Source: a virus (lineage: Duplodnaviria > Heunggongvirae > Uroviricota > Caudoviricetes). Taken from it: a stretch of DNA of 6,532 nucleotides. The notes under the pieces are model-generated. The model worked only from the letters and a program-made list of their open reading frames with translations, was not told where the DNA came from and did no database searches. The stretch lies in the IMG/VR virus record IMGVR_UViG_2711768009_000014. The stretch is one strand, 5' to 3'. The translations under genes and the position numbers were made by a program. How positions within the stretch are numbered: the stretch's first letter is position 1; every line of letters starts with the position of its first letter. Shown here piece by piece: positions 1-6,532 of the stretch.

Positions 1-140
1 CATTGAGATTTTCTACAATCGTCAGCGTCGTCACTCTCGTCTGGGGAATATCTCCCCGGCAGCCTTCAGGGAAAAATATCATCAGATGGCTGCTTAAAAA
101 AAGAACAAATGGTAGTGTCCGCTATTGCCAGTACACCTCA
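1..140 (+). mobile_element. IS3-family insertion sequence, right end only (orfB 3' end plus terminal inverted repeat ending ...CA at 140); the rest of the element lies outside the window
   Basis: Bases 1-140 are the exact reverse complement of 6393-6532; identity stops abruptly at 140/141 and 6393/6392. Contains the C-terminal coding end of a transposase with the IS3-family OrfB signature ...FYNRQRRHSRLG..SP..F... The specific IS name cannot be assigned from memory. Confidence 0.8.
2..97 (+). CDS. IS3-family transposase OrfB, C-terminal 31 codons (5'-partial, runs off window start)
   Basis: Frame 2 translation IEIFYNRQRRHSRLGNISPAAFREKYHQMAA* with stop TAA at 95-97; the YNRQRRHS motif is typical of the C-terminus of IS3-family integrase-domain transposases. 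Confidence 0.75.
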   Translation: MEIFYNRQRRHSRLGNISPAAFREKYHQMAA

Positions 141-325
141 GGATAGCGGTCATGTGATGCCGGTTTCCCGGTAACTCAGCACCGGTATCTGAGTCAACGT
201 TTTCTCTACTGGGTCATTTCCGATACGCCCTGCCTGCTGACAGGCTTTCATCACATCTGAAAATATAGCACCCTGACTGATACTGTAGTACCTAAGGTTC
301 CAGAAACTGTGATGTATCCGGCACA

Positions 326-347
326 GAAAAGCCCCTCCGGAGAGGGC
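326..347 (-). terminator. Possible rho-independent terminator downstream of the tRNA cluster
   Basis: Minus strand reads CCCTC-tccg-GAGGG (5-bp stem) followed by GCTTTTCTGTG; short stem, imperfect U-run. Confidence 0.3.
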
Positions 348-584
348 TGGAGAGTGGCGCTATGTGCCATTGCATGATGCCGGGTGCCTCCCGGTGAATT
401 CAGTACCAGCACCTGAATCCGCGATTATCCCATATACCTACTCGCTGATTGCCCCTCCGCACAGGGGGATTCACCATGCCAGTTTCTTTTAACAAACTCC
501 CCGCAAAACAGACAACTGTCAACCGTCTGAATTGTGAGACATTTAAAAAAAAGGCCCGCAAAAGCGAGCCAGGGAAAATAAGTG

Positions 585-661
585 TGGCGCGTTGTACTGG
601 ATTCGAACCAGTGACCGATTGCTTAGAAGGCAATTGCTCTGTCCGGCTGAGCTAACAACGC
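585..661 (-). tRNA. tRNA-Arg (anticodon UCU)
   Basis: Minus-strand sequence GCGTTGT-TA-GCTC-AGCCGGACA-GAGC-A-ATTGC-CTTCTAA-GCAAT-CGGTC-ACTGG-TTCGAAT-CCAGT-ACAACGC-G-CCA folds as a canonical cloverleaf with perfect 7-bp acceptor stem, GTTCGAATC T-loop, encoded CCA; anticodon loop CT-TCT-AA. Confidence 0.85.
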
Positions 662-674
662 ATGATGCAGATAA

Positions 675-751
675 TGGACCGCCATCGGGGACTTGAACCC
701 CGCGCAGCCAGCTTCGAAGGCTGGCGCTCTTTCCTGATGAGCTAATGGCGG
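675..751 (-). tRNA. tRNA-Arg (anticodon UCG)
   Basis: Minus-strand CCGCCAT-TA-GCTC-ATCAGGAAA-GAGC-G-CCAGC-CTTCGAA-GCTGG-CTGCG-CGGGG-TTCAAGT-CCCCG-ATGGCGG-T-CCA; perfect acceptor, anticodon and T stems; anticodon loop CT-TCG-AA. The 5' nucleotide is C (C1-G72), unusual but tolerated. Confidence 0.8.
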
Positions 752-758
752 TATGTGA

Positions 759-834
759 TGGTGGCCCTTGCTGGATTTGAACCAGCGACCTGGCGATTAT
801 GAGTCGCTCGCTCTCACCACTGAGCTAAAGGGCC
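759..834 (-). tRNA. tRNA with CAU anticodon (tRNA-Ile2 lysidine-type or tRNA-Met; cannot be distinguished from sequence alone)
   Basis: Minus-strand GGCCCTT-TA-GCTC-AGTGGTGA-GAGC-G-AGCGA-CTCATAA-TCGCC-AGGTC-GCTGG-TTCAAAT-CCAGC-AAGGGCC-A-CCA; perfect 7-bp acceptor stem, encoded CCA. A CAU/Arg/Arg tRNA trio in this order matches the ileZ-argN-argO arrangement recalled from Stx-converting lambdoid phages. Confidence 0.85.
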
Positions 835-874
835 GGGAGCCGCATAATAACGACGCGTAATTAATTCTTCAATA

Positions 875-1828
875 TCATCCGTTCTGGCTGACTAAATCCT
901 GTACTTCCCGAACCGTCTGCTCAAAACGTTCAGTCTCCAGCTCAACGCCAATTGCACGACGCCCGAGCGCCAGTGCCGCTTTCACTGTCGAACCCAACCC
1001 CATGAAAAAATCTGCAATCAGGTCACCCGGACGACTGCTAGCGCTGATTATCTGCTGCAGCATTTCTGCCGGTTTTTCGCACGGATGTTTCCCGGGATAG
1101 AACTGCACCGGTTTATGCGTCCACACATCGGTATACGGCACCTGCACCGTCACGCCAAAATACCGCCGCAGATGTTTATATTCACTCAGCAGCTCCGCAT
1201 ACTGCCGGTTCAGTGAGGTATACGTATCCACCAGCTGGTGGTGGAGCTTTTCCAGTTCACCACGCCGATGCTTCTCTTCTGCCACCCGGGCAAACAGCGC
1301 CTGTAATTTCAGATAATCGCTTTCATTCGGCAACTGCCACTGACCGGCACTGAACCAGTGCGACACCATGTTTTTCTTTCCTGTGGCATCTGCAATCTGT
1401 TTTGCCGTTATCCCCAGGGCAGCTCGCGCATCACGAAAGTAAGAAATCAGCGGGGCCATCACATGCTGTTTCAGTGCACTGCCCTTCGCCGCATACCCGG
1501 CATCTTTCGGACGATACGGCCCCTGATAATGTTCCGCGAACAGAATGCGCTCTGTGGCGGGGAAATACGCCCGCAGGCTTTCCTTGTTGCATCCGTTCCA
1601 GCGTCCGGACGGCTTCGCCCAGATAATATGGTTCAGCACACTGAAGCGTTCACGCATCATGATTTCGATATCAGATGCCAGGCGATGACCACAGAACAGG
1701 TAAAGACTTCCGGCAGGTTTCAGCACCCGCCAGAACTGCGCCAGACACTGGTCCAGCCACTTCAGGTAATCATCGTCGCCCTTCCACTGGTTATCCCAGC
1801 CCTCAGGCTTCACTTTAAAGTACGGCGG
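875..1828 (-). CDS. DNA methyltransferase, beta-class (N6-adenine or N4-cytosine), 5'-partial because the N-terminus is interrupted by the N gap
   Basis: ORF 875..1813 extends in frame to the gap edge, where the codons read PPYFK (catalytic motif IV, DPPY; base 1829 is consistent with a GAC Asp codon). Near the C-terminus the AdoMet-binding motif I appears as DFFMGLGST. Motif IV before motif I defines the beta permutation. No restriction endonuclease candidate is adjacent. Confidence 0.85.
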   Translation of the reverse strand, partial: PPYFKVKPEGWDNQWKGDDDYLKWLDQCLAQFWRVLKPAGSLYLFCGHRLASDIEIMMRERFSVLNHIIWAKPSGRWNGCNKESLRAYFPATERILFAEHYQGPYRPKDAGYAAKGSALKQHVMAPLISYFRDARAALGITAKQIADATGKKNMVSHWFSAGQWQLPNESDYLKLQALFARVAEEKHRRGELEKLHHQLVDTYTSLNRQYAELLSEYKHLRRYFGVTVQVPYTDVWTHKPVQFYPGKHPCEKPAEMLQQIISASSRPGDLIADFFMGLGSTVKAALALGRRAIGVELETERFEQTVREVQDLVSQNG

Positions 1829-1829
1829 G

Positions 1830-1860
1830 NNNNNNNNNNNNNNNNNNNNNNNNNNNNNNN
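1830..1860. other. Run of 31 N (assembly gap or masked bases)
   Basis: Literal n characters at 1830-1860; true length and sequence unknown, so reading frame across the gap is not defined. Confidence 0.99.
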
Positions 1861-1952
1861 GCGCAAAGCAGTGGGCCTGAGGTTTGCTTGTGAACCCAAC
1901 GCATGAGCAGATGGCTGGTGGGTGCCCCTAACACCCACCAGCCGCCCATTTA

Positions 1953-1984
1953 CCACAAATAAAAAAGCCTTCACTGCGGAAGGC
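1953..1984 (-). terminator. Rho-independent terminator overlapping the stop codon of the 65-aa ORF
   Basis: Minus strand: GCCTTC-cgcagt-GAAGGC (6-bp perfect stem) followed by TTTTTTATTTGTGG. Confidence 0.55.
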
Positions 1985-2168
1985 GTCTGTAACAACCGAA
2001 CTGATAGTCTGCCAGACCCGCCATAACCAGCTGGGTCAGTATTAACTGGCAGCGTTCGCGTGAAAGGTAAGTATTCTGCGCTATCTCCCCGACTGTCGCC
2101 GGTTCGGTAACGCTTAATTCATTAAACACCACTCTGGCGGTTTCTGTCATATCCTGCTGTTTTAGCAT
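1971..2168 (-). CDS. Hypothetical small protein (65 aa), possible helix-turn-helix DNA-binding fold; first ORF downstream of pR'/tR'
   Basis: ATG at 2168-2166 preceded by AAAGGAAAAGAC; protein MLKQQDMTETARVVFNELSVTEPATVGEIAQNTYLSRERCQLILTQLVMAGLADYQFGCYRRLPQ. The segment TVGEIAQNTYLSRERCQLILTQL resembles an HTH recognition helix; no family assigned. Confidence 0.45.
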   Translation of the reverse strand: MLKQQDMTETARVVFNELSVTEPATVGEIAQNTYLSRERCQLILTQLVMAGLADYQFGCYRRLPQ

Positions 2169-2288
2169 GTCTTTTCCTTTTCCGGTTAACGTGACACACC
2201 AATAACTCTTGTCGAAAAAGCCAGCAAGCTGAAAGACAGGTATTCACCGCCACCAGCGCGTTTACTGTACTGACGCGATTTCAGTCAT

Positions 2289-2310
2289 AAAAAACCCGCT
2301 CGGCGGCGGG
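2289..2310 (-). terminator. tR'-like rho-independent terminator of the late promoter leader
   Basis: Minus strand CCCGC-cgccga-GCGGG followed by TTTTTTATG; lies about 45-65 nt downstream of the predicted pR' start. Confidence 0.6.
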
Positions 2311-2351
2311 TTGTAGAAACTCTTCTAACGTCAGGCATAAAACGCCCATCG

Positions 2352-2387
2352 TTATAACGAATTTACCACAGATTCCGGAAAAATCAA
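2352..2387 (-). promoter_or_regulatory. Late promoter pR'-like (Q-dependent), with lambda-type -10 TAAATT and downstream AACGATGGG sigma70 pause element
   Basis: Minus strand, immediately after the Q stop codon: TTGATT (2387-2382) - 16 nt - TAAATT (2365-2360) - cgttata - ACGATGGG. Lambda pR' as I recall it has TTGACT, TAAATT and AACGATGGG at matching spacing. Confidence 0.6.
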
Positions 2388-2392
2388 CCTTG

Positions 2393-3214
2393 TTACCTAG
2401 TTACCTTTTTTAACTGCCGCTCAGCCCATGCTTCTTCAATATCAAACCGGGTCACCAGCGCATCATAAAATTTCTTAACTGTTTTTTCCCATGACGCGCG
2501 TGTTATCTGGTTTGTCACCTCGCATATAGCATTAAATGCCTCCGTTGATGGTAGTCTTTCATAGCCACGACCACCACAACGCTGGCAGTCTCTGATAACA
2601 GGCATACCACGTTTTACCGACTCTTCACGATGAATGGCGACACCACGCCCACGGCAATCCTTACAGGCGGTGGAAACCTCACCCTTTCCGCCACACTCCG
2701 GACAGGCAACTTTTACCACCTCCCTGACTTTTTTCCATTCTTCCCAGTAAGACGGATACACACCTTTCGTACACTTTGCCCATACCGGCGGCTTACCATC
2801 CGGATACTGGATCTTGTTTGTAAAAACCTCGCTTTCAATAAATTTTTTTCCGTGACAGCAGGGGCACTGTTTTTTGCTCGCCGCGCTACGGGCATAATCT
2901 TCAAACGCATACGAAGCCATAATACGCATCACTGCCGGTTTTATTTCTGCCGGGAGTTTTCTTAACGCCGCCACGCGATCACACCGACTGAGTGCATATT
3001 CTGTCAGCAATTCTGTTGCCCGCTCTCTGTCATTCATACTAATGCCCATTTTCCCAAGGAACGCAGAAACCCCCATCTCAGCCCGATTCTGTGTCATGCC
3101 CTGCGCGGCCATCACATCAGTGATACTCAGCGCATCTTTCGACGTTGAGGCCGATGCATCAGTCAGGCCGGGGGATTTTGGGGAGTAGTATTTCGGTAAA
3201 TCTTCCAGTTTCAT
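2393..3214 (-). CDS. Q: Late-gene antitermination protein Q (lambda Q family) with an expanded cysteine-rich zinc-finger region
   Basis: 273 aa; recognisable blocks shared with lambda Q as recalled: N-terminal M-[KR]-LE...K-[FY]-x-SPKSP, TDVMAAxGM, AxYAFxDYxRSAA, C-terminal WxxTVKxxYDALV. The central region carries CPCCHGKK, CPECGGKG, CKDCRGRG and CQRCGGRG (CxxCxGxG repeats). Start ATG overlaps the rusA stop (ATGA); followed directly by the pR'-like promoter. Confidence 0.8.
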   Translation of the reverse strand: MKLEDLPKYYSPKSPGLTDASASTSKDALSITDVMAAQGMTQNRAEMGVSAFLGKMGISMNDRERATELLTEYALSRCDRVAALRKLPAEIKPAVMRIMASYAFEDYARSAASKKQCPCCHGKKFIESEVFTNKIQYPDGKPPVWAKCTKGVYPSYWEEWKKVREVVKVACPECGGKGEVSTACKDCRGRGVAIHREESVKRGMPVIRDCQRCGGRGYERLPSTEAFNAICEVTNQITRASWEKTVKKFYDALVTRFDIEEAWAERQLKKVTR

Positions 3215-3591
3215 TTTTTGACCTGCCCTTCAAGCATTATGGGATAAATCTTCACCCCCAGACGTCCACCAGATACTGGCTGAGCACGAACGATATTGAT
3301 TTCATCAAACTGCTCATCGTCCATTAGCAACCCCGCATGCGTCAGCGCATCCAGCGGCGCTTTCAGAATATTGTCCAGGTCACGGCGGCGCTTATCCGGT
3401 GGTTCTGCAATAATTTTTATTGCCAACCTTCCGGACAGGCTTAATTTCAGCCGCTGCTGGCGAACAATAAGCGCCACTGCCCGGCGATAACGCTCCCCGG
3501 CTTTTGATACAAAATATGTGCTGCCACGACGACGCCAGTAAGTGTTCACCGTCGGCGGGTAAGGTAAAACAAATTCTATGCGCTCGGTCAT
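3211..3591 (-). CDS. rusA: RusA-family Holliday junction resolvase (crossover junction endodeoxyribonuclease)
   Basis: 126 aa; motifs LPYPPTVN, PDKRRRDLDN, KAPLDALTHAGLLMDDEQF and SGGRLGVKI align with E. coli RusA (LPWPPSNN, PDRRRRDLDN, KAAFDALTKAGFWLDDAQV, KGGRLELTI). ATG abuts the upstream stop (TAAATG). Confidence 0.9.
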   Translation of the reverse strand: MTERIEFVLPYPPTVNTYWRRRGSTYFVSKAGERYRRAVALIVRQQRLKLSLSGRLAIKIIAEPPDKRRRDLDNILKAPLDALTHAGLLMDDEQFDEINIVRAQPVSGGRLGVKIYPIMLEGQVKK

Positions 3592-4650
3592 TTATGCTTT
3601 CCACTTCAGAACACCCGAATTTCTCGCGTGCATTAAAAAACGAATCAGCAACAACAGCTGACTGCCGTGTTTCTCTTCAAAATCTTTTACTCCGGCATGT
3701 AGTTCGTTACGGCATTTACGGCATAACGGAATAACAAACAAATCATCAGCCTTTGTTCCCATCCCTCCCAGTCCATGACCAATGATGTGATGCGGATCAT
3801 CTGCCTGATTGCCACACGTCATGCATTTCTGCGTTTTTACCCAGCGCGTGTATACAGGCATCTCTTCCCGTTGTGATTTCTGGCGCTGGAGATACTGAGC
3901 CGGTGACTCCGGATCAACGGCAATGCTGACCACCGTCTTTTCCTGTGGTGGGTTCTGTTGCTGGTGGACGTGAGGCAGTAACGCAATATTTTTTGTGCGC
4001 TGCTTCAGTATGCTGGTGGCTGTCTGCTCTCCCGGTATGATGTCGCTTTCACTGTACACAGAGCGAATTTTTTCCGCACGCAACCCCAGCGAACGACGTA
4101 ATACCGCTTCCGGTAGCGCGTCCGCCACCTGATTGCGGACCGCCCACCAGGATAATTCAGCCAGAGATAATTCACGCTCCTGCGTACCGCTTATTGCGTG
4201 ACCGATGACGTCAATCATCCATGCTGACAGGTTTTGATGAGCAAGTTGCTCGAGTGATTCGGATGTCTGGTCACGCAGCTGGTTGTCGCAGTGCCAGCAC
4301 AACACCATTGCGCCGGTACCATAACGGTGAATGACGGTTTCGCTGTGATGATAATCGCCGTGTGGCCACTGGCAGGATTTAATATGGCGCAACAGCCAGT
4401 CAGACAATGCACCAGCACCACCAGCAGCACGAATCACCCGTGCGTTACTGAAAAACGGCAGCAATGTTTTGTCTTCCACCAGCGGCTGGCGAGCGGCAGG
4501 AACGACCCCGGACGGCAGATTACGCATGCTTTTTGGTTCCGGCTCCACCAGTATTCTGCCGTTATGGAATGCTGACATTGATTCACGGCCTGGCTTAACG
4601 ATAACCAGACCGAGTTCCGGTACCAGAACAGGTCGAAGTAATACCCGCAC
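3592..4650 (-). CDS. Prophage DUF968-like protein (YdfU-like) with C-terminal HNH-like Cys/His motif
   Basis: 352-aa ORF with GTG start preceded by a strong SD (tctGGAGGtaatGTG); C-terminal CMTCGNQADDPHHIIGHG...CRKCRNELH resembles an HNH/zinc-ribbon nuclease motif. Size and position (immediately upstream of rusA and Q) match the ydfU-type gene of Qin-like prophages; family assignment is from memory. Alternative ATG start at 4578. Confidence 0.6.
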   Translation of the reverse strand: MRVLLRPVLVPELGLVIVKPGRESMSAFHNGRILVEPEPKSMRNLPSGVVPAARQPLVEDKTLLPFFSNARVIRAAGGAGALSDWLLRHIKSCQWPHGDYHHSETVIHRYGTGAMVLCWHCDNQLRDQTSESLEQLAHQNLSAWMIDVIGHAISGTQERELSLAELSWWAVRNQVADALPEAVLRRSLGLRAEKIRSVYSESDIIPGEQTATSILKQRTKNIALLPHVHQQQNPPQEKTVVSIAVDPESPAQYLQRQKSQREEMPVYTRWVKTQKCMTCGNQADDPHHIIGHGLGGMGTKADDLFVIPLCRKCRNELHAGVKDFEEKHGSQLLLLIRFLMHARNSGVLKWKA

Positions 4651-4725
4651 ATTACCTCCAGATCCGTTGCTGGAATGTGCGGGACGGACGCGTTGGCCGT
4701 TCGGAGTAAGGGAGCCTGACGGAGA

Positions 4726-5007
4726 TTATCCAGTGACGGTAGTCGAGGCTAAGGGCTTTTTTAACCTCGCATCCGCGCCTGCGGTAACACTGAATGAGCC
4801 ATTCGGCCTGTTCTTCAGTGCATGGGGGATGCTGGTACCAATCAGATTTAAATGCGTGAGAGCGCCGCCCGTGCCTGCTGGCAAAGACGGCTGAATTATC
4901 AGAATTGTGTAGTCTGGAAGGCAGTGGCTGACAATAGCGCCATTCTCAACGCGCACAGTATAGAGGCCATCTTCACTAAAAATTTCACGTAATTCTTCGA
5001 TTTTCAT
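4726..5007 (-). CDS. Hypothetical protein (93 aa from ATG at 5007)
   Basis: ATG at 5007-5005 preceded by a good SD (ctGGAAGGAttctgttgATG). N-terminal 40 aa (MKIEELREIFSEDGLYTVRVENGAIVSHCLPDYTILIIQ) look protein-like; the C-terminal half is Pro/Gly/Thr/Ala-rich and unusual. Confidence 0.45.
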   Translation of the reverse strand: MKIEELREIFSEDGLYTVRVENGAIVSHCLPDYTILIIQPSLPAGTGGALTHLNLIGTSIPHALKNRPNGSFSVTAGADARLKKPLASTTVTG

Positions 5008-5089
5008 CAACAGAATCCTTCCAGATAAATAGCACTCCCCTGTTCGGGGTCCATCCCTCTTCTCCCTGCGCGCTACTTAAGTATTTTTG

Positions 5090-5119
5090 ATTCTATTCCG
5101 GCACCATCTAAAACTTCAA
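5090..5119 (-). promoter_or_regulatory. Candidate sigma70 promoter for the 93aa-DUF968-rusA-Q operon
   Basis: Minus strand TTGAAG - 18 nt - TAGAAT, directly downstream of the hok terminator and about 85 nt upstream of the 93-aa ORF start; spacer slightly long. Confidence 0.35.
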
Positions 5120-5126
5120 ACGCGTT

Positions 5127-5159
5127 GAAAATAAAAACAAAAACCCGCCGAAGCGGGTT
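5127..5159 (-). terminator. Rho-independent terminator at the 3' end of the hok mRNA
   Basis: Minus strand AACCCGC-ttcg-GCGGGTT followed by TTTTGTTTTTATTTT; about 70 nt downstream of the hok stop, as expected for a hok transcript with a 3' fold-back region. Confidence 0.7.
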
Positions 5160-5227
5160 AAGTGTGGGTGCATTGAGGATGCCTGCCCCATCAGAGGTGG
5201 CGAGGGATTTCTCCCCCGCCTGGTCTC

Positions 5228-5383
5228 TTACTCCTCAGGTTCGTAAGCTGTGAAGACAGCGACCTCCGTCTGGCCGGTTCGAATTCGTACCTCGCAGAGG
5301 TCTTTCCTCGTTACCAGTGCCGTCACTATGACGGTTAAACAGATGACGATCAGGGCGATTAACATCGCCTTTTGCTGCTTCAT
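5228..5383 (-). CDS. hok: Hok/Gef-family membrane toxin (type I toxin), HokD/RelF-like, 51 aa
   Basis: MKQQKAMLIALIVICLTVIVTALVTRKDLCEVRIRTGQTEVAVFTAYEPEE: single transmembrane helix plus the conserved C-terminal ...RKxLCEVRIR..G.xEVAAF.AYE block of Hok proteins; SD GGAG 9 nt upstream. The leader (GCTTGAGGCT ... TAGCCTCTTAC ... GCAAGGAGAAG.AGGC.ATGAA) parallels the plasmid R1 hok mRNA leader as recalled. Confidence 0.9.
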   Translation of the reverse strand: MKQQKAMLIALIVICLTVIVTALVTRKDLCEVRIRTGQTEVAVFTAYEPEE

Positions 5384-5431
5384 AGCCTGCTTCTCCTTGC
5401 CTTTCGGCACGTAAGAGGCTAACCTAGATTT

Positions 5432-5505
5432 GCCGTTCATAGATTGAGCCTCAGATTAATGTTAAGCGTCTTGCCGGACGCGTAATGTTAACTGGGGCTT
5501 TTCTC
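5432..5505 (+). ncRNA. Putative Sok-like antisense RNA (antitoxin of the hok locus)
   Basis: On the plus strand inside the hok leader: TTGCCT (5397-5402) - 17 nt - TAACCT (5420-5425), with a transcript complementary to the mok-like SD/start region and ending near GGGGCTTTTCTCT (about 5495-5505), which resembles the 3' end of R1 Sok (GGGGCUAUCUUCUUU). Ends are approximate; no clean terminator hairpin identified. Confidence 0.4.
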
Positions 5506-5559
5506 TATCTGCCTTTTGGTGTTCATGCCTGAGACAGATAGCCTCAAGCACCCGCTGCA

Positions 5560-5588
5560 ATTCTACTTAACTCTCCTTTTCCCGCAAA
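5560..5588 (-). promoter_or_regulatory. Candidate hok mRNA promoter
   Basis: Minus strand TTTGCG - 17 nt - TAGAAT, with predicted start about 7 nt downstream at ..GGGTGCTTGAGGCT, corresponding to the conserved 5' end of hok mRNAs. Confidence 0.5.
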
Positions 5589-5674
5589 CCGTTTTTATCC
5601 CCAGCGGCAAATCGAATACACCACCAGCGCCACCGCCATCGCAATTCCTACCGTTGTTAATGCTTCAGGCCAGG

Positions 5675-6019
5675 TCATCGTAAAATATCCTCCACGCTTA
5701 TCAGTCCGTTCCGCTCCAGATAACTCATCGCCTTATCCGGTAATTTGCAGTCTGGCTTCGCTTTCCTCAGTTGCCAGGTTAACTGCTTTACCAGCATGGT
5801 TAACTCATCGACCAGACGCTGATATCCCACTGGTTTGTATTCATGCAATTTACCGGCTGGCTCTGCTGCCAGCGATACCAGTGCGATTTCCAGAACAGCA
5901 ATATCCATCTTATATGTGCGGATGATGTCATGGTCGATTGTGCCCGGTATGCACAGTCTCTGTGCTTCAATAGTCTCCTCTGCGTGAGCTATTAACTGCT
6001 CTCTGGTAAAAGTCGTCAT
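5675..6019 (-). CDS. Hypothetical protein (114 aa), longer member of a paralogous pair
   Basis: ATG overlaps the stop of the upstream 55-aa ORF (ATGA). Shares N-terminal MTTFTRE (vs MTTITKE) and the block [11 protein letters not shown] (vs [11 protein letters not shown]) with the 55-aa ORF. No family recognised. Confidence 0.55.
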
Positions 6020-6183
6020 GCCGTAGCCCCTTCTTGATATTTTTCAAACCAGAACACAACCGGCTCTGCTTCCAGCGATGCCAGCGCAATCCGTGCCAGT
6101 TCCATTTGTTCACCACGGGTAAGCCCGTTTTCAAGCGGGTTTTTAATGAACAATTCAATACGTTCTTTGGTAATAGTGGTCAT
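6016..6183 (-). CDS. Hypothetical small protein (55 aa), shorter member of the paralogous pair; below the 60-aa cutoff of the ORF track
   Basis: ATG at 6183-6181 preceded by a strong SD (taaGGAGtaacacATG); translation [55 protein letters not shown]; stop overlaps the start of the 114-aa ORF. Confidence 0.5.
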
Positions 6184-6193
6184 GTGTTACTCC

Positions 6194-6392
6194 TTAACCC
6201 GCAGTGCTTTCAACTGATGAGGGGAACAAAATCTTTTCATCAAACCCTGCATTCATATCATGAACAGCAACACACCAATCCATCGACGAACGATTATCAA
6301 GAGCCTCCATGATTTCATCCATGCGGCGTAGGTCATACAGGTAAATGCTTTTATCGCCAATGGTGTAAAAGCCAATTTTTTTCGGTGATGGA
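6194..6392 (-). pseudogene. 3' fragment (about 65 codons) of a gene truncated by the IS insertion
   Basis: Open frame runs from inside the IS end (6424) across the junction at 6393/6392 to the stop at 6194; the first 10 codons are IS-derived, so only ...PSPKKIGFYTIGDKSIYLYDLRRMDEIMEALDNRSSMDWCVAVHDMNAGFDEKILFPSSVESTAG* is native. Product not recognised. Confidence 0.5.
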
Positions 6393-6532
6393 TGAGGTGT
6401 ACTGGCAATAGCGGACACTACCATTTGTTCTTTTTTTAAGCAGCCATCTGATGATATTTTTCCCTGAAGGCTGCCGGGGAGATATTCCCCAGACGAGAGT
6501 GACGACGCTGACGATTGTAGAAAATCTCAATG
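6393..6532 (-). mobile_element. Second copy of the same IS3-family element end, inverted orientation; the rest of the element lies outside the window
   Basis: Exact reverse complement of 1-140. Confidence 0.8.
6436..6531 (-). CDS. IS3-family transposase OrfB C-terminal fragment (5'-partial, runs off window end)
   Basis: Mirror image of 2..97; same translation ...IEIFYNRQRRHSRLGNISPAAFREKYHQMAA*. Confidence 0.75.
   Translation of the reverse strand: MEIFYNRQRRHSRLGNISPAAFREKYHQMAA

Follow-up and report, generated by a model that had tools for sequence, protein, structure and literature searches.

The late-operon leader of a defective Shigella sonnei prophage: very probably an ordinary combination of a tRNA trio, STnc100-type small RNA genes, an empty cargo site and a simple IS600 insertion

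The DNA analysed here is a 6,532-bp stretch from the IMG/VR virus record IMGVR_UViG_2711768009_000014 (the window), and its first 834 positions, where three tRNA genes are followed on the minus strand by 444 bp that end at an insertion sequence (IS), are the subject of this report. We are highly confident that this region belongs to the late-operon leader of a defective lambdoid Shigella sonnei prophage and is ordinary in its make-up: the tRNA trio is joined by an array of STnc100-family small RNA (sRNA) genes, an empty cargo site and a simple insertion of IS600. In the alignment with S. sonnei Ss046 (CP000038), window positions 1–1829 are 100% identical and positions 1861–6532 are 99.96% identical, both IS junctions included. 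The DUF968 protein encoded in the window has exact-sequence matches in complete chromosomes including CP000038. Below, L015 denotes the Ss046 locus, L012 that of CP064376 and L013 that of S. sonnei CP022672.1. Every element is of a described kind in a described place and the finding is already known; the sole mildly open item is the unannotated middle unit of the sRNA array (unit 2).

A full-length STnc100-family gene in the 444 bp after argO

A preliminary description of this DNA had called positions 141–584 a non-coding stub. As regards proteins this holds, as the stretch contains only short, overlapping open reading frames (ORFs) of 34–77 aa on both strands, none of them supported. We rejected these as genes; in relatives, the only call of the Prokaryotic Genome Annotation Pipeline (PGAP) there is an incomplete pseudogene. 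The idea of a featureless remnant has to be given up, since the stretch holds a full-length STnc100 sRNA gene that the first reading missed. The features are as follows.

Positions 541–544, no strand assigned: empty cargo ("moron") site (alignment with Stx2a_WGPS6).
Positions 508–319, minus strand (the tRNA strand): unit 1, full-length STnc100-family sRNA gene (Rfam RF02076, 123.6 bits, gathering score 47, E=1.3e-27, model positions 1–206 of 206).
Positions 325–348, minus strand: unit 1 terminator, a hairpin (348–330) followed by TTTCTGT, giving a hairpin with a U-tract (terminator scan and alignment).
Positions 141–328, minus strand: unit 2, a degenerate STnc100-like paralogue (21.8 bits as truncated here; the intact copy in locus L003 scores 30.1 bits, E=1.7e-4).

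Orthologues of unit 1 score 136–138 bits in E. coli O121, UTI89 and phage Nil3. In the relatives that lack the interruption (E. coli O121, 98.4% identical, and UTI89), argO is followed by an unannotated gap of ~975 bp with three tandem units, which score 136.9 bits (unit 1), 30.1 bits (unit 2) and 161 bits (unit 3). After the units come a nanS-p esterase or DUF1737 gene, a holin gene, ydfR, lysozyme and Rz.

In Sp5 and seven further Sakai prophages, Hfq-bound sRNAs have been mapped to the pR' "moron" site, with EcOnc27 in sense and AsxR in antisense orientation (Tree et al. 2014, PMC4104026). Downstream of stx2B, EcOnc27/sRNA103 and the predicted STnc100 overlap (PMC12711010); STnc100 is placed 75 nt after stx2B (PMC12370729), and it is related to PasD1 and PasD2, sRNAs of enteropathogenic E. 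coli (EPEC) (bioRxiv 10.64898/2026.05.13.724894; PMC8550237). In Stx2a_WGPS6 we found a single STnc100 unit of 154 bits, which starts 75 nt after stx2B. The window resembles the STnc100/EcOnc27 system in the full-length model match, the shared strand and the same place relative to the pR' moron site and the nanS-p and lysis genes. It differs in that its lineage has a three-unit tandem array, as seen in the intact relatives and Ss046, whereas Stx2a_WGPS6 has one unit.

Unit 2 is cut by IS600 5 nt short of its own terminator. L003, L004 and L012 show the terminator that is missing here, GGCCCATCCGCTCCGGTGGGCC followed by T5. Unit 2, which is annotated nowhere, occurs in 673 of 5,426 complete E. 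coli genomes; its two alleles have identities of at least 99% and ~86%. Further copies lie at L003 7584–7800 and L016 1501–1740. Between the alleles, an internal hairpin has changes that preserve base pairing and the terminator has a 4-nt indel; a terminator still forms in each of them. The 3' 100 nt are near-invariant, even across backbones that are otherwise ~78% identical. The intact unit has an unremarkable folding z-score of -1.50. If unit 2 is transcribed in S. sonnei, its transcript would run antisense into the IS600 transposase gene, where it could affect transposition or make a new regulatory RNA.

AgvB, AsxR and Esr41 gave no match in general Rfam scans of the window and L003. Right after unit 3 in L003 (8071–8160), the opposite strand carries a strong terminator, GCCCGCGTCTCCCAGCGCGGGC followed by T7. 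This is the expected place of a convergent anti-sRNA of the AsxR/AgvB class, and a weak OmrA-B look-alike of 25 bits was the only match there, with none to AgvB or AsxR. Other candidates from the Rfam scans, including Plastid-ycf2 (antisense to a tRNA), isrK, rsmX, P26, Trp_leader and sR55, remained below their gathering scores and were set aside as chance matches or terminator look-alikes.

The site that carries stx2 in a Stx2a phage is empty

Searches with stx2A and stx2B by tblastn and blastn gave a best E-value of 0.2 across the window and the 21-kb Ss046 locus, while the positive control worked, in agreement with the earlier statement that no sequence resembling Shiga toxin (Stx) genes is present. 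Stx2a_WGPS6 holds 1,333 bp, comprising the stx2 promoter and stx2AB, between its homologues of window positions 584–544 and 541–508. Only 2 nt separate these two cassette flanks in the window; the second flank is at the start of the sRNA unit. Among complete E. coli genomes of pathotypes other than Shiga toxin-producing E. coli (STEC), more than 300 have the same uninterrupted junction at 97–98% identity. The site thus has the same position as the pR' moron site of Stx2 phages, between the late promoter and tRNAs on one side and the sRNA genes on the other; it is filled by stx2AB in Stx2a_WGPS6 and unoccupied in the window. A second difference from the described site is that no convergent anti-sRNA of the AsxR/AgvB type has an Rfam match in the window or its relatives.

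The preliminary description had offered two explanations, that this phage lineage never carried a cargo gene here or that cargo and lysis genes were lost through the IS. The first is favoured, as the stx2 flanks stand 2 nt apart just as they do in hundreds of non-Stx prophages, and the sequence comparison points to an S. sonnei lineage in which no Shiga toxin was carried at this site.

The tRNA trio is ileZ-argN-argO

ARAGORN and Rfam agree on three tRNAs within 834–585 on the minus strand, in the order CAU, Arg-UCG, Arg-UCU in the direction of late transcription, as had been read from the sequence before. The cluster and its flanking signals are listed below.

Positions 844–872, minus strand: sigma-70 promoter-like site TTGAAG-17-TATTAT just upstream of the tRNA cluster (consensus match only).
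Positions 759–834, minus strand: tRNA with CAU anticodon, ileZ type (tRNA-Ile2), CCA encoded (ARAGORN; Rfam 72.5 bits).
Positions 675–751, minus strand: tRNA-Arg (UCG), argN type (ARAGORN; Rfam 58 bits).
Positions 585–661, minus strand: tRNA-Arg (UCU), argO type (ARAGORN; Rfam 70.1 bits).
Positions 545–570 (hairpin 570–553), minus strand: intrinsic-terminator-like hairpin GGCTCGCTTTTGCGGGCC with a T8 tract directly after argO (terminator scan).

The CAU tRNA is labelled Met by ARAGORN, which uses the anticodon alone, and tRNA-Ile by PGAP on an identical gene; its Ile2 identity is taken from annotation. Compared with the named genes of Stx2a_WGPS6, 76 of 76 positions are identical in ileZ, 69 of 77 in argN and 76 of 77 in argO. 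This near identity, with the same anticodons, order and strand, supports the earlier assignment of the trio to the ileZ-argN-argO cluster. argN matches the copy in the E. coli O121 prophage at 73 of 77 positions, argO is identical (77/77) to the O121 and UTI89 prophage copies, and E. coli 55989 has the whole trio at 100% identity. The cluster also lies downstream of Q and pR'-tR', as stated before: Q (3214–2393) is upstream on the same strand, with a 65-aa ORF and a DNA methylase gene in between. These two genes between Q/tR' and the tRNAs, and the lack of stxAB after them, set the window apart from the Stx2 cluster of the 933W/Sp5 type and Stx2a_WGPS6. Anticodons, order, the late strand downstream of Q and the terminator after argO, which is identical in sequence in Stx2a_WGPS6 and stands there upstream of stx2A, are common to both.

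At least 80% of the trio is covered in 279 phage records (235 of them at 95–99% identity), the majority of which are Stx2-converting phages. Nevertheless, the label "Stx-phage-type" proved too narrow, since the trio is carried by 2,578 of 5,426 complete E. coli genomes, including uropathogenic and other extraintestinal pathogenic strains (UPEC/ExPEC) and enteroaggregative E. coli (EAEC). Carriers include UTI89, S88 and 55989, and there are up to 13 copies per genome.

The tRNAs are bracketed by the promoter-like site at 872–844 and the terminator at 570–553, so their expression may be independent of Q. Sigma-70-like sites in the scanned region do not exceed the shuffle expectation, which makes the site at 844–872 weak evidence. 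In S. sonnei L013, a 1.3-kb insertion (14077–15412) with a ~13-bp duplication, GGGTTCAAGTCCC, interrupts the T-arm of argN; it encodes a 428-aa transposase, which we take to be of the IS186 type.

The supply of rare codons is the long-standing explanation of ileZ-argN-argO in the literature on 933W. Judging by the tRNA families, the trio would decode AUA, CGA/CGG and AGA/AGG, which the host uses rarely and which are enriched in phage and cargo genes. The codon counts of the window fit this explanation: in samples that are small throughout, ATA, AGA and AGG occur at 12.3, 6.5 and 5.2 per thousand codons in the window genes, at 3.9, 1.3 and 0 in four flanking core genes and at 36.6, 14.6 and 4.9 in stx2AB.

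IS600 inserted without deleting its neighbours

That the 444-bp stretch ends at an IS is correct, position 140 being the IS end. The IS features of the window are given below.

Positions 1–140, plus strand: right end of IS600, comprising the transposase gene's 3' end and the terminal inverted repeat, which closes with ...CACCTCA at 140 (140/140 identical to an annotated "IS3-like element IS600 family transposase").
Positions 141–143, no strand assigned: one copy of the 3-bp IS600 target-site duplication, GGA on the plus strand and TCC on the late strand (occupied L015 compared with empty L012).
Positions 6393–6532, minus strand: right end of a second, inverted IS600 copy, a perfect inverted repeat of 1–140 (L015 6995–8258).

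In Ss046 the full IS600 at this junction occupies L015 14624–15887. It is 1,264 bp long, has the ends TGAGGTG...CTACCTCA, is flanked by a TCC/TCC duplication and encodes a two-ORF (orfA/orfB) rve transposase. Identity, length, TG...CA termini and 3-bp duplication all agree with IS600 (IS3 family) of Shigella, of which the window contains only the terminal 140 bp. CP064376 (L012), otherwise identical, keeps the empty site ...GCTATCCTTCCAGG...; the junction k-mers were CCGCTATCCTGAGGTGTACTGG for the occupied and CCGCTATCCTTCCAGGCCCATC for the empty site. An exact search of species-representative genomes for the phage/IS600 junction returned none, as would be the case if that collection has no representative of its own for S. 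sonnei. On the far side of IS600, the Ss046 sequence runs on through the terminator of unit 2, unit 3 (161 bits), the nanS-p esterase gene, holin and ydfR, and this stretch is colinear with the E. coli O121 prophage through ydfR at 99.3%. The duplication, the empty site in L012 and the colinear continuation together identify a simple insertion, by which the downstream genes were shifted 1,267 bp and nothing was deleted. The proposal that the IS had removed or displaced cargo and lysis genes at the junction is therefore contradicted, since Ss046 still has the esterase, holin and ydfR genes, 1.27 kb further along.

Elsewhere in the prophage, loss driven by IS elements remains a fitting description, as it is IS-ridden and its lysozyme gene is truncated ~4.4 kb downstream, near a third IS600. 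Likewise, the lysis cassette that the earlier description sought elsewhere in the genome is only partly there: holin and ydfR lie beyond the IS in Ss046, lysozyme is reduced to 18 codons and no Rz precedes the next IS600. After the 18 codons of the lysozyme N-terminus, L015 19016–19200 consists of degenerate repeats of ~20 nt (GATC...TTTGGCAT). The third IS600 follows at 19351–20614, ~150 bp downstream of the lysozyme remnant ORF, and then come tail-fibre assembly genes. On the upstream side, a DUF977 segment is inverted relative to an E. coli relative and lies beside the first IS600.

Both ends of the window fall within IS600, since IS copies that are repeated in a genome interrupt short-read assemblies. 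Most records with the DUF968 protein of the window are contigs of 2–10 kb. Both IS overlaps at the contig ends are exactly 140 bp, and the window accordingly looks like an assembly-graph unitig bounded by a collapsed repeat, with the overlap probably equal to k-1. In Ss046 a unique segment of 6.25 kb is flanked by two inverted IS600 copies, an arrangement that resembles a composite transposon or is prone to inversion.

Proposed working and alternatives

In the order of late transcription, the layout would be Q, pR'/tR', the 65-aa ORF, the methylase gene, the tRNAs with their own terminator, the empty cargo site and the tandem STnc100 units. Of these units the first would be complete and the second split from its terminator by IS600, with unit 3, nanS-p, holin and ydfR beyond the IS. 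By analogy with the named families, RNAs of the STnc100/EcOnc27 type would be Hfq-associated base-pairing sRNAs. Candidate sources of the sRNA are a promoter of its own, which would be non-consensus, processing of the tRNA transcript, or Q-antiterminated read-through from pR'.

Several observations weigh against a working leader of this kind. The prophage in Ss046 is defective, with a truncated lysis cassette and most structural genes missing, and late transcription dependent on Q may therefore never take place. Immediately upstream of unit 1 the promoter scan gave no consensus sigma-70 promoter; a conserved TTGACA there lacks an acceptable -10 element at 16–18 nt. In the window lineage the unit 1 terminator has 6 pairs and a 7-nt loop, compared with 7 pairs and a 4-nt loop in the orthologues, owing to a 1-nt deletion in the 5' arm, and a C-to-T change at position 379 turns a G-C pair of unit 1 into G-U. 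The deletion weakens the terminator stem, and together with this change it lowers the Rfam score of unit 1 from 137 to 124 bits, which may be early decay. The minimum free energy of unit 1 in single-sequence folding is also unremarkable (z-score -0.54); given this value and that of unit 2, the evidence for an RNA is homology to a curated family and not thermodynamic stability. As to the cargo site, a precise ancient loss of a cassette is indistinguishable from a site that never carried one.

It is unlikely that the tRNA and sRNA genes are inert relics of a dead prophage, with nothing expressed or selected in S. sonnei. This reading would be in accordance with the truncated lysis cassette and largely missing structural genes, the weakened terminator of unit 1, the severed unit 2 and the presumed IS186-type insertion inside argN of one strain. 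However, the trio has kept 100% identity with that of E. coli 55989 and perfect cloverleaf scores in all three genes, a promoter-like site precedes it, and homologous sRNAs are abundant and Hfq-bound in uninduced lysogens of enterohaemorrhagic E. coli (EHEC) and EPEC (PMC4104026, PMC8550237). Quite improbable is that unit 2 is a distinct, unnamed STnc100/PasD-like sRNA with its own terminator, severed by IS600 in S. sonnei, or, as a second possibility, that the intact trio is kept in the dead prophage because it helps to translate the AT-rich, rare-codon-rich genes of the virulence plasmid.

The two readings that invoke a lost gene fare worse than an ordinary leader with an unoccupied site. 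That a stx cassette once stood between argO and unit 1 and was then precisely lost is very improbable, even though both flanks have homologues beside the stx2 cassette of Stx2a phages and Stx phages do infect S. sonnei (phage 75/02 Stx): the site bears no scar, the same junction is found in the more than 300 complete non-STEC genomes, and the backbone of the window, with its 273-aa Q and its methylase, differs from that of the Stx2a phage examined. We give next to no credence to a deletion or rearrangement by the IS that took a cargo gene and the lysis cassette at the junction, and for genomes of the Ss046 type it is already refuted. Such an event could be suspected from a window bounded by IS on both sides and from a prophage with at least three IS600 copies plus IS1, an 18-codon lysozyme remnant and an inverted DUF977 segment. 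The 1,264-bp element is nevertheless flanked by a direct TCC duplication and has its exact empty counterpart in L012, its far side runs colinear at 99.3% into unit 3, nanS-p, holin and ydfR, and the stx position of Stx2a phages lies intact 400 bp upstream of IS600.

Implications for annotation

The biological importance of the locus is small, and its lessons concern annotation. An ORF-free region after phage tRNAs should be scanned for sRNA families before it is called a remnant. The ileZ-argN-argO cluster is a marker of lambdoid late regions generally, not of Shiga-toxin phages. An IS at a contig end tells nothing of loss, because short-read contigs of IS-rich genomes such as those of Shigella stop there. 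The locus also illustrates cleanly what an unoccupied stx (moron) site looks like, each flank being mapped to within 2 nt.

Neighbouring genes of the window

The window is the nin/late-regulatory segment of a lambdoid prophage. On the minus strand it reads from an IS end through three small ORFs, hok/sok, a Rem-like ORF, DUF968, RusA and Q, and then through pR'/tR', the 65-aa ORF, the DNA methyltransferase gene, the three tRNAs and the 444 bp without an ORF to the other IS end. Pfam assignments of the window proteins were taken from records of identical proteins.

Positions 5553–5378, minus strand: sok/hok-mRNA element (Rfam RF01794, 112 bits).
Positions 5440–5228, minus strand: Hok ORF, a 70-aa call with a 51-aa HokD-type core.
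Positions 4650–3592, minus strand: DUF968 protein (Pfam on identical protein).
Positions 3591–3211, minus strand: RusA (Pfam on identical protein).
Positions 3214–2393, minus strand: late antiterminator Q, 273 aa (Pfam PF03589 Antiterm on identical protein; relatives are annotated as antitermination protein).
Positions 2387–2382 and 2365–2360, minus strand: putative pR'-like hexamers TTGATT and TAAATT with a 16-nt spacer (by eye; below the scan threshold).
Positions 2312–2293, minus strand: tR'-like terminator hairpin (terminator scan).
Positions 875–1860, minus strand: N6/N4 DNA methyltransferase (PF01555), 5' end masked by the N-run at 1830–1860.

The run of 31 N at 1830–1860 replaces 144 bp of Ss046, from the start codon of the methylase gene up to its DPPY motif. 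The gap or mask does not preserve length, and the methylase was consequently under-called in the ORF list, which starts it at a GTG and gives it 312 aa instead of the true 352 aa. The hok/sok genes at 5228–5553 on the minus strand form a complete type I toxin-antitoxin module. A weak isrK-like Rfam match at 5138–5219 on the minus strand has 25.8 bits, short of its gathering score of 50; it overlaps the terminator that follows hok and is probably just that terminator hairpin.

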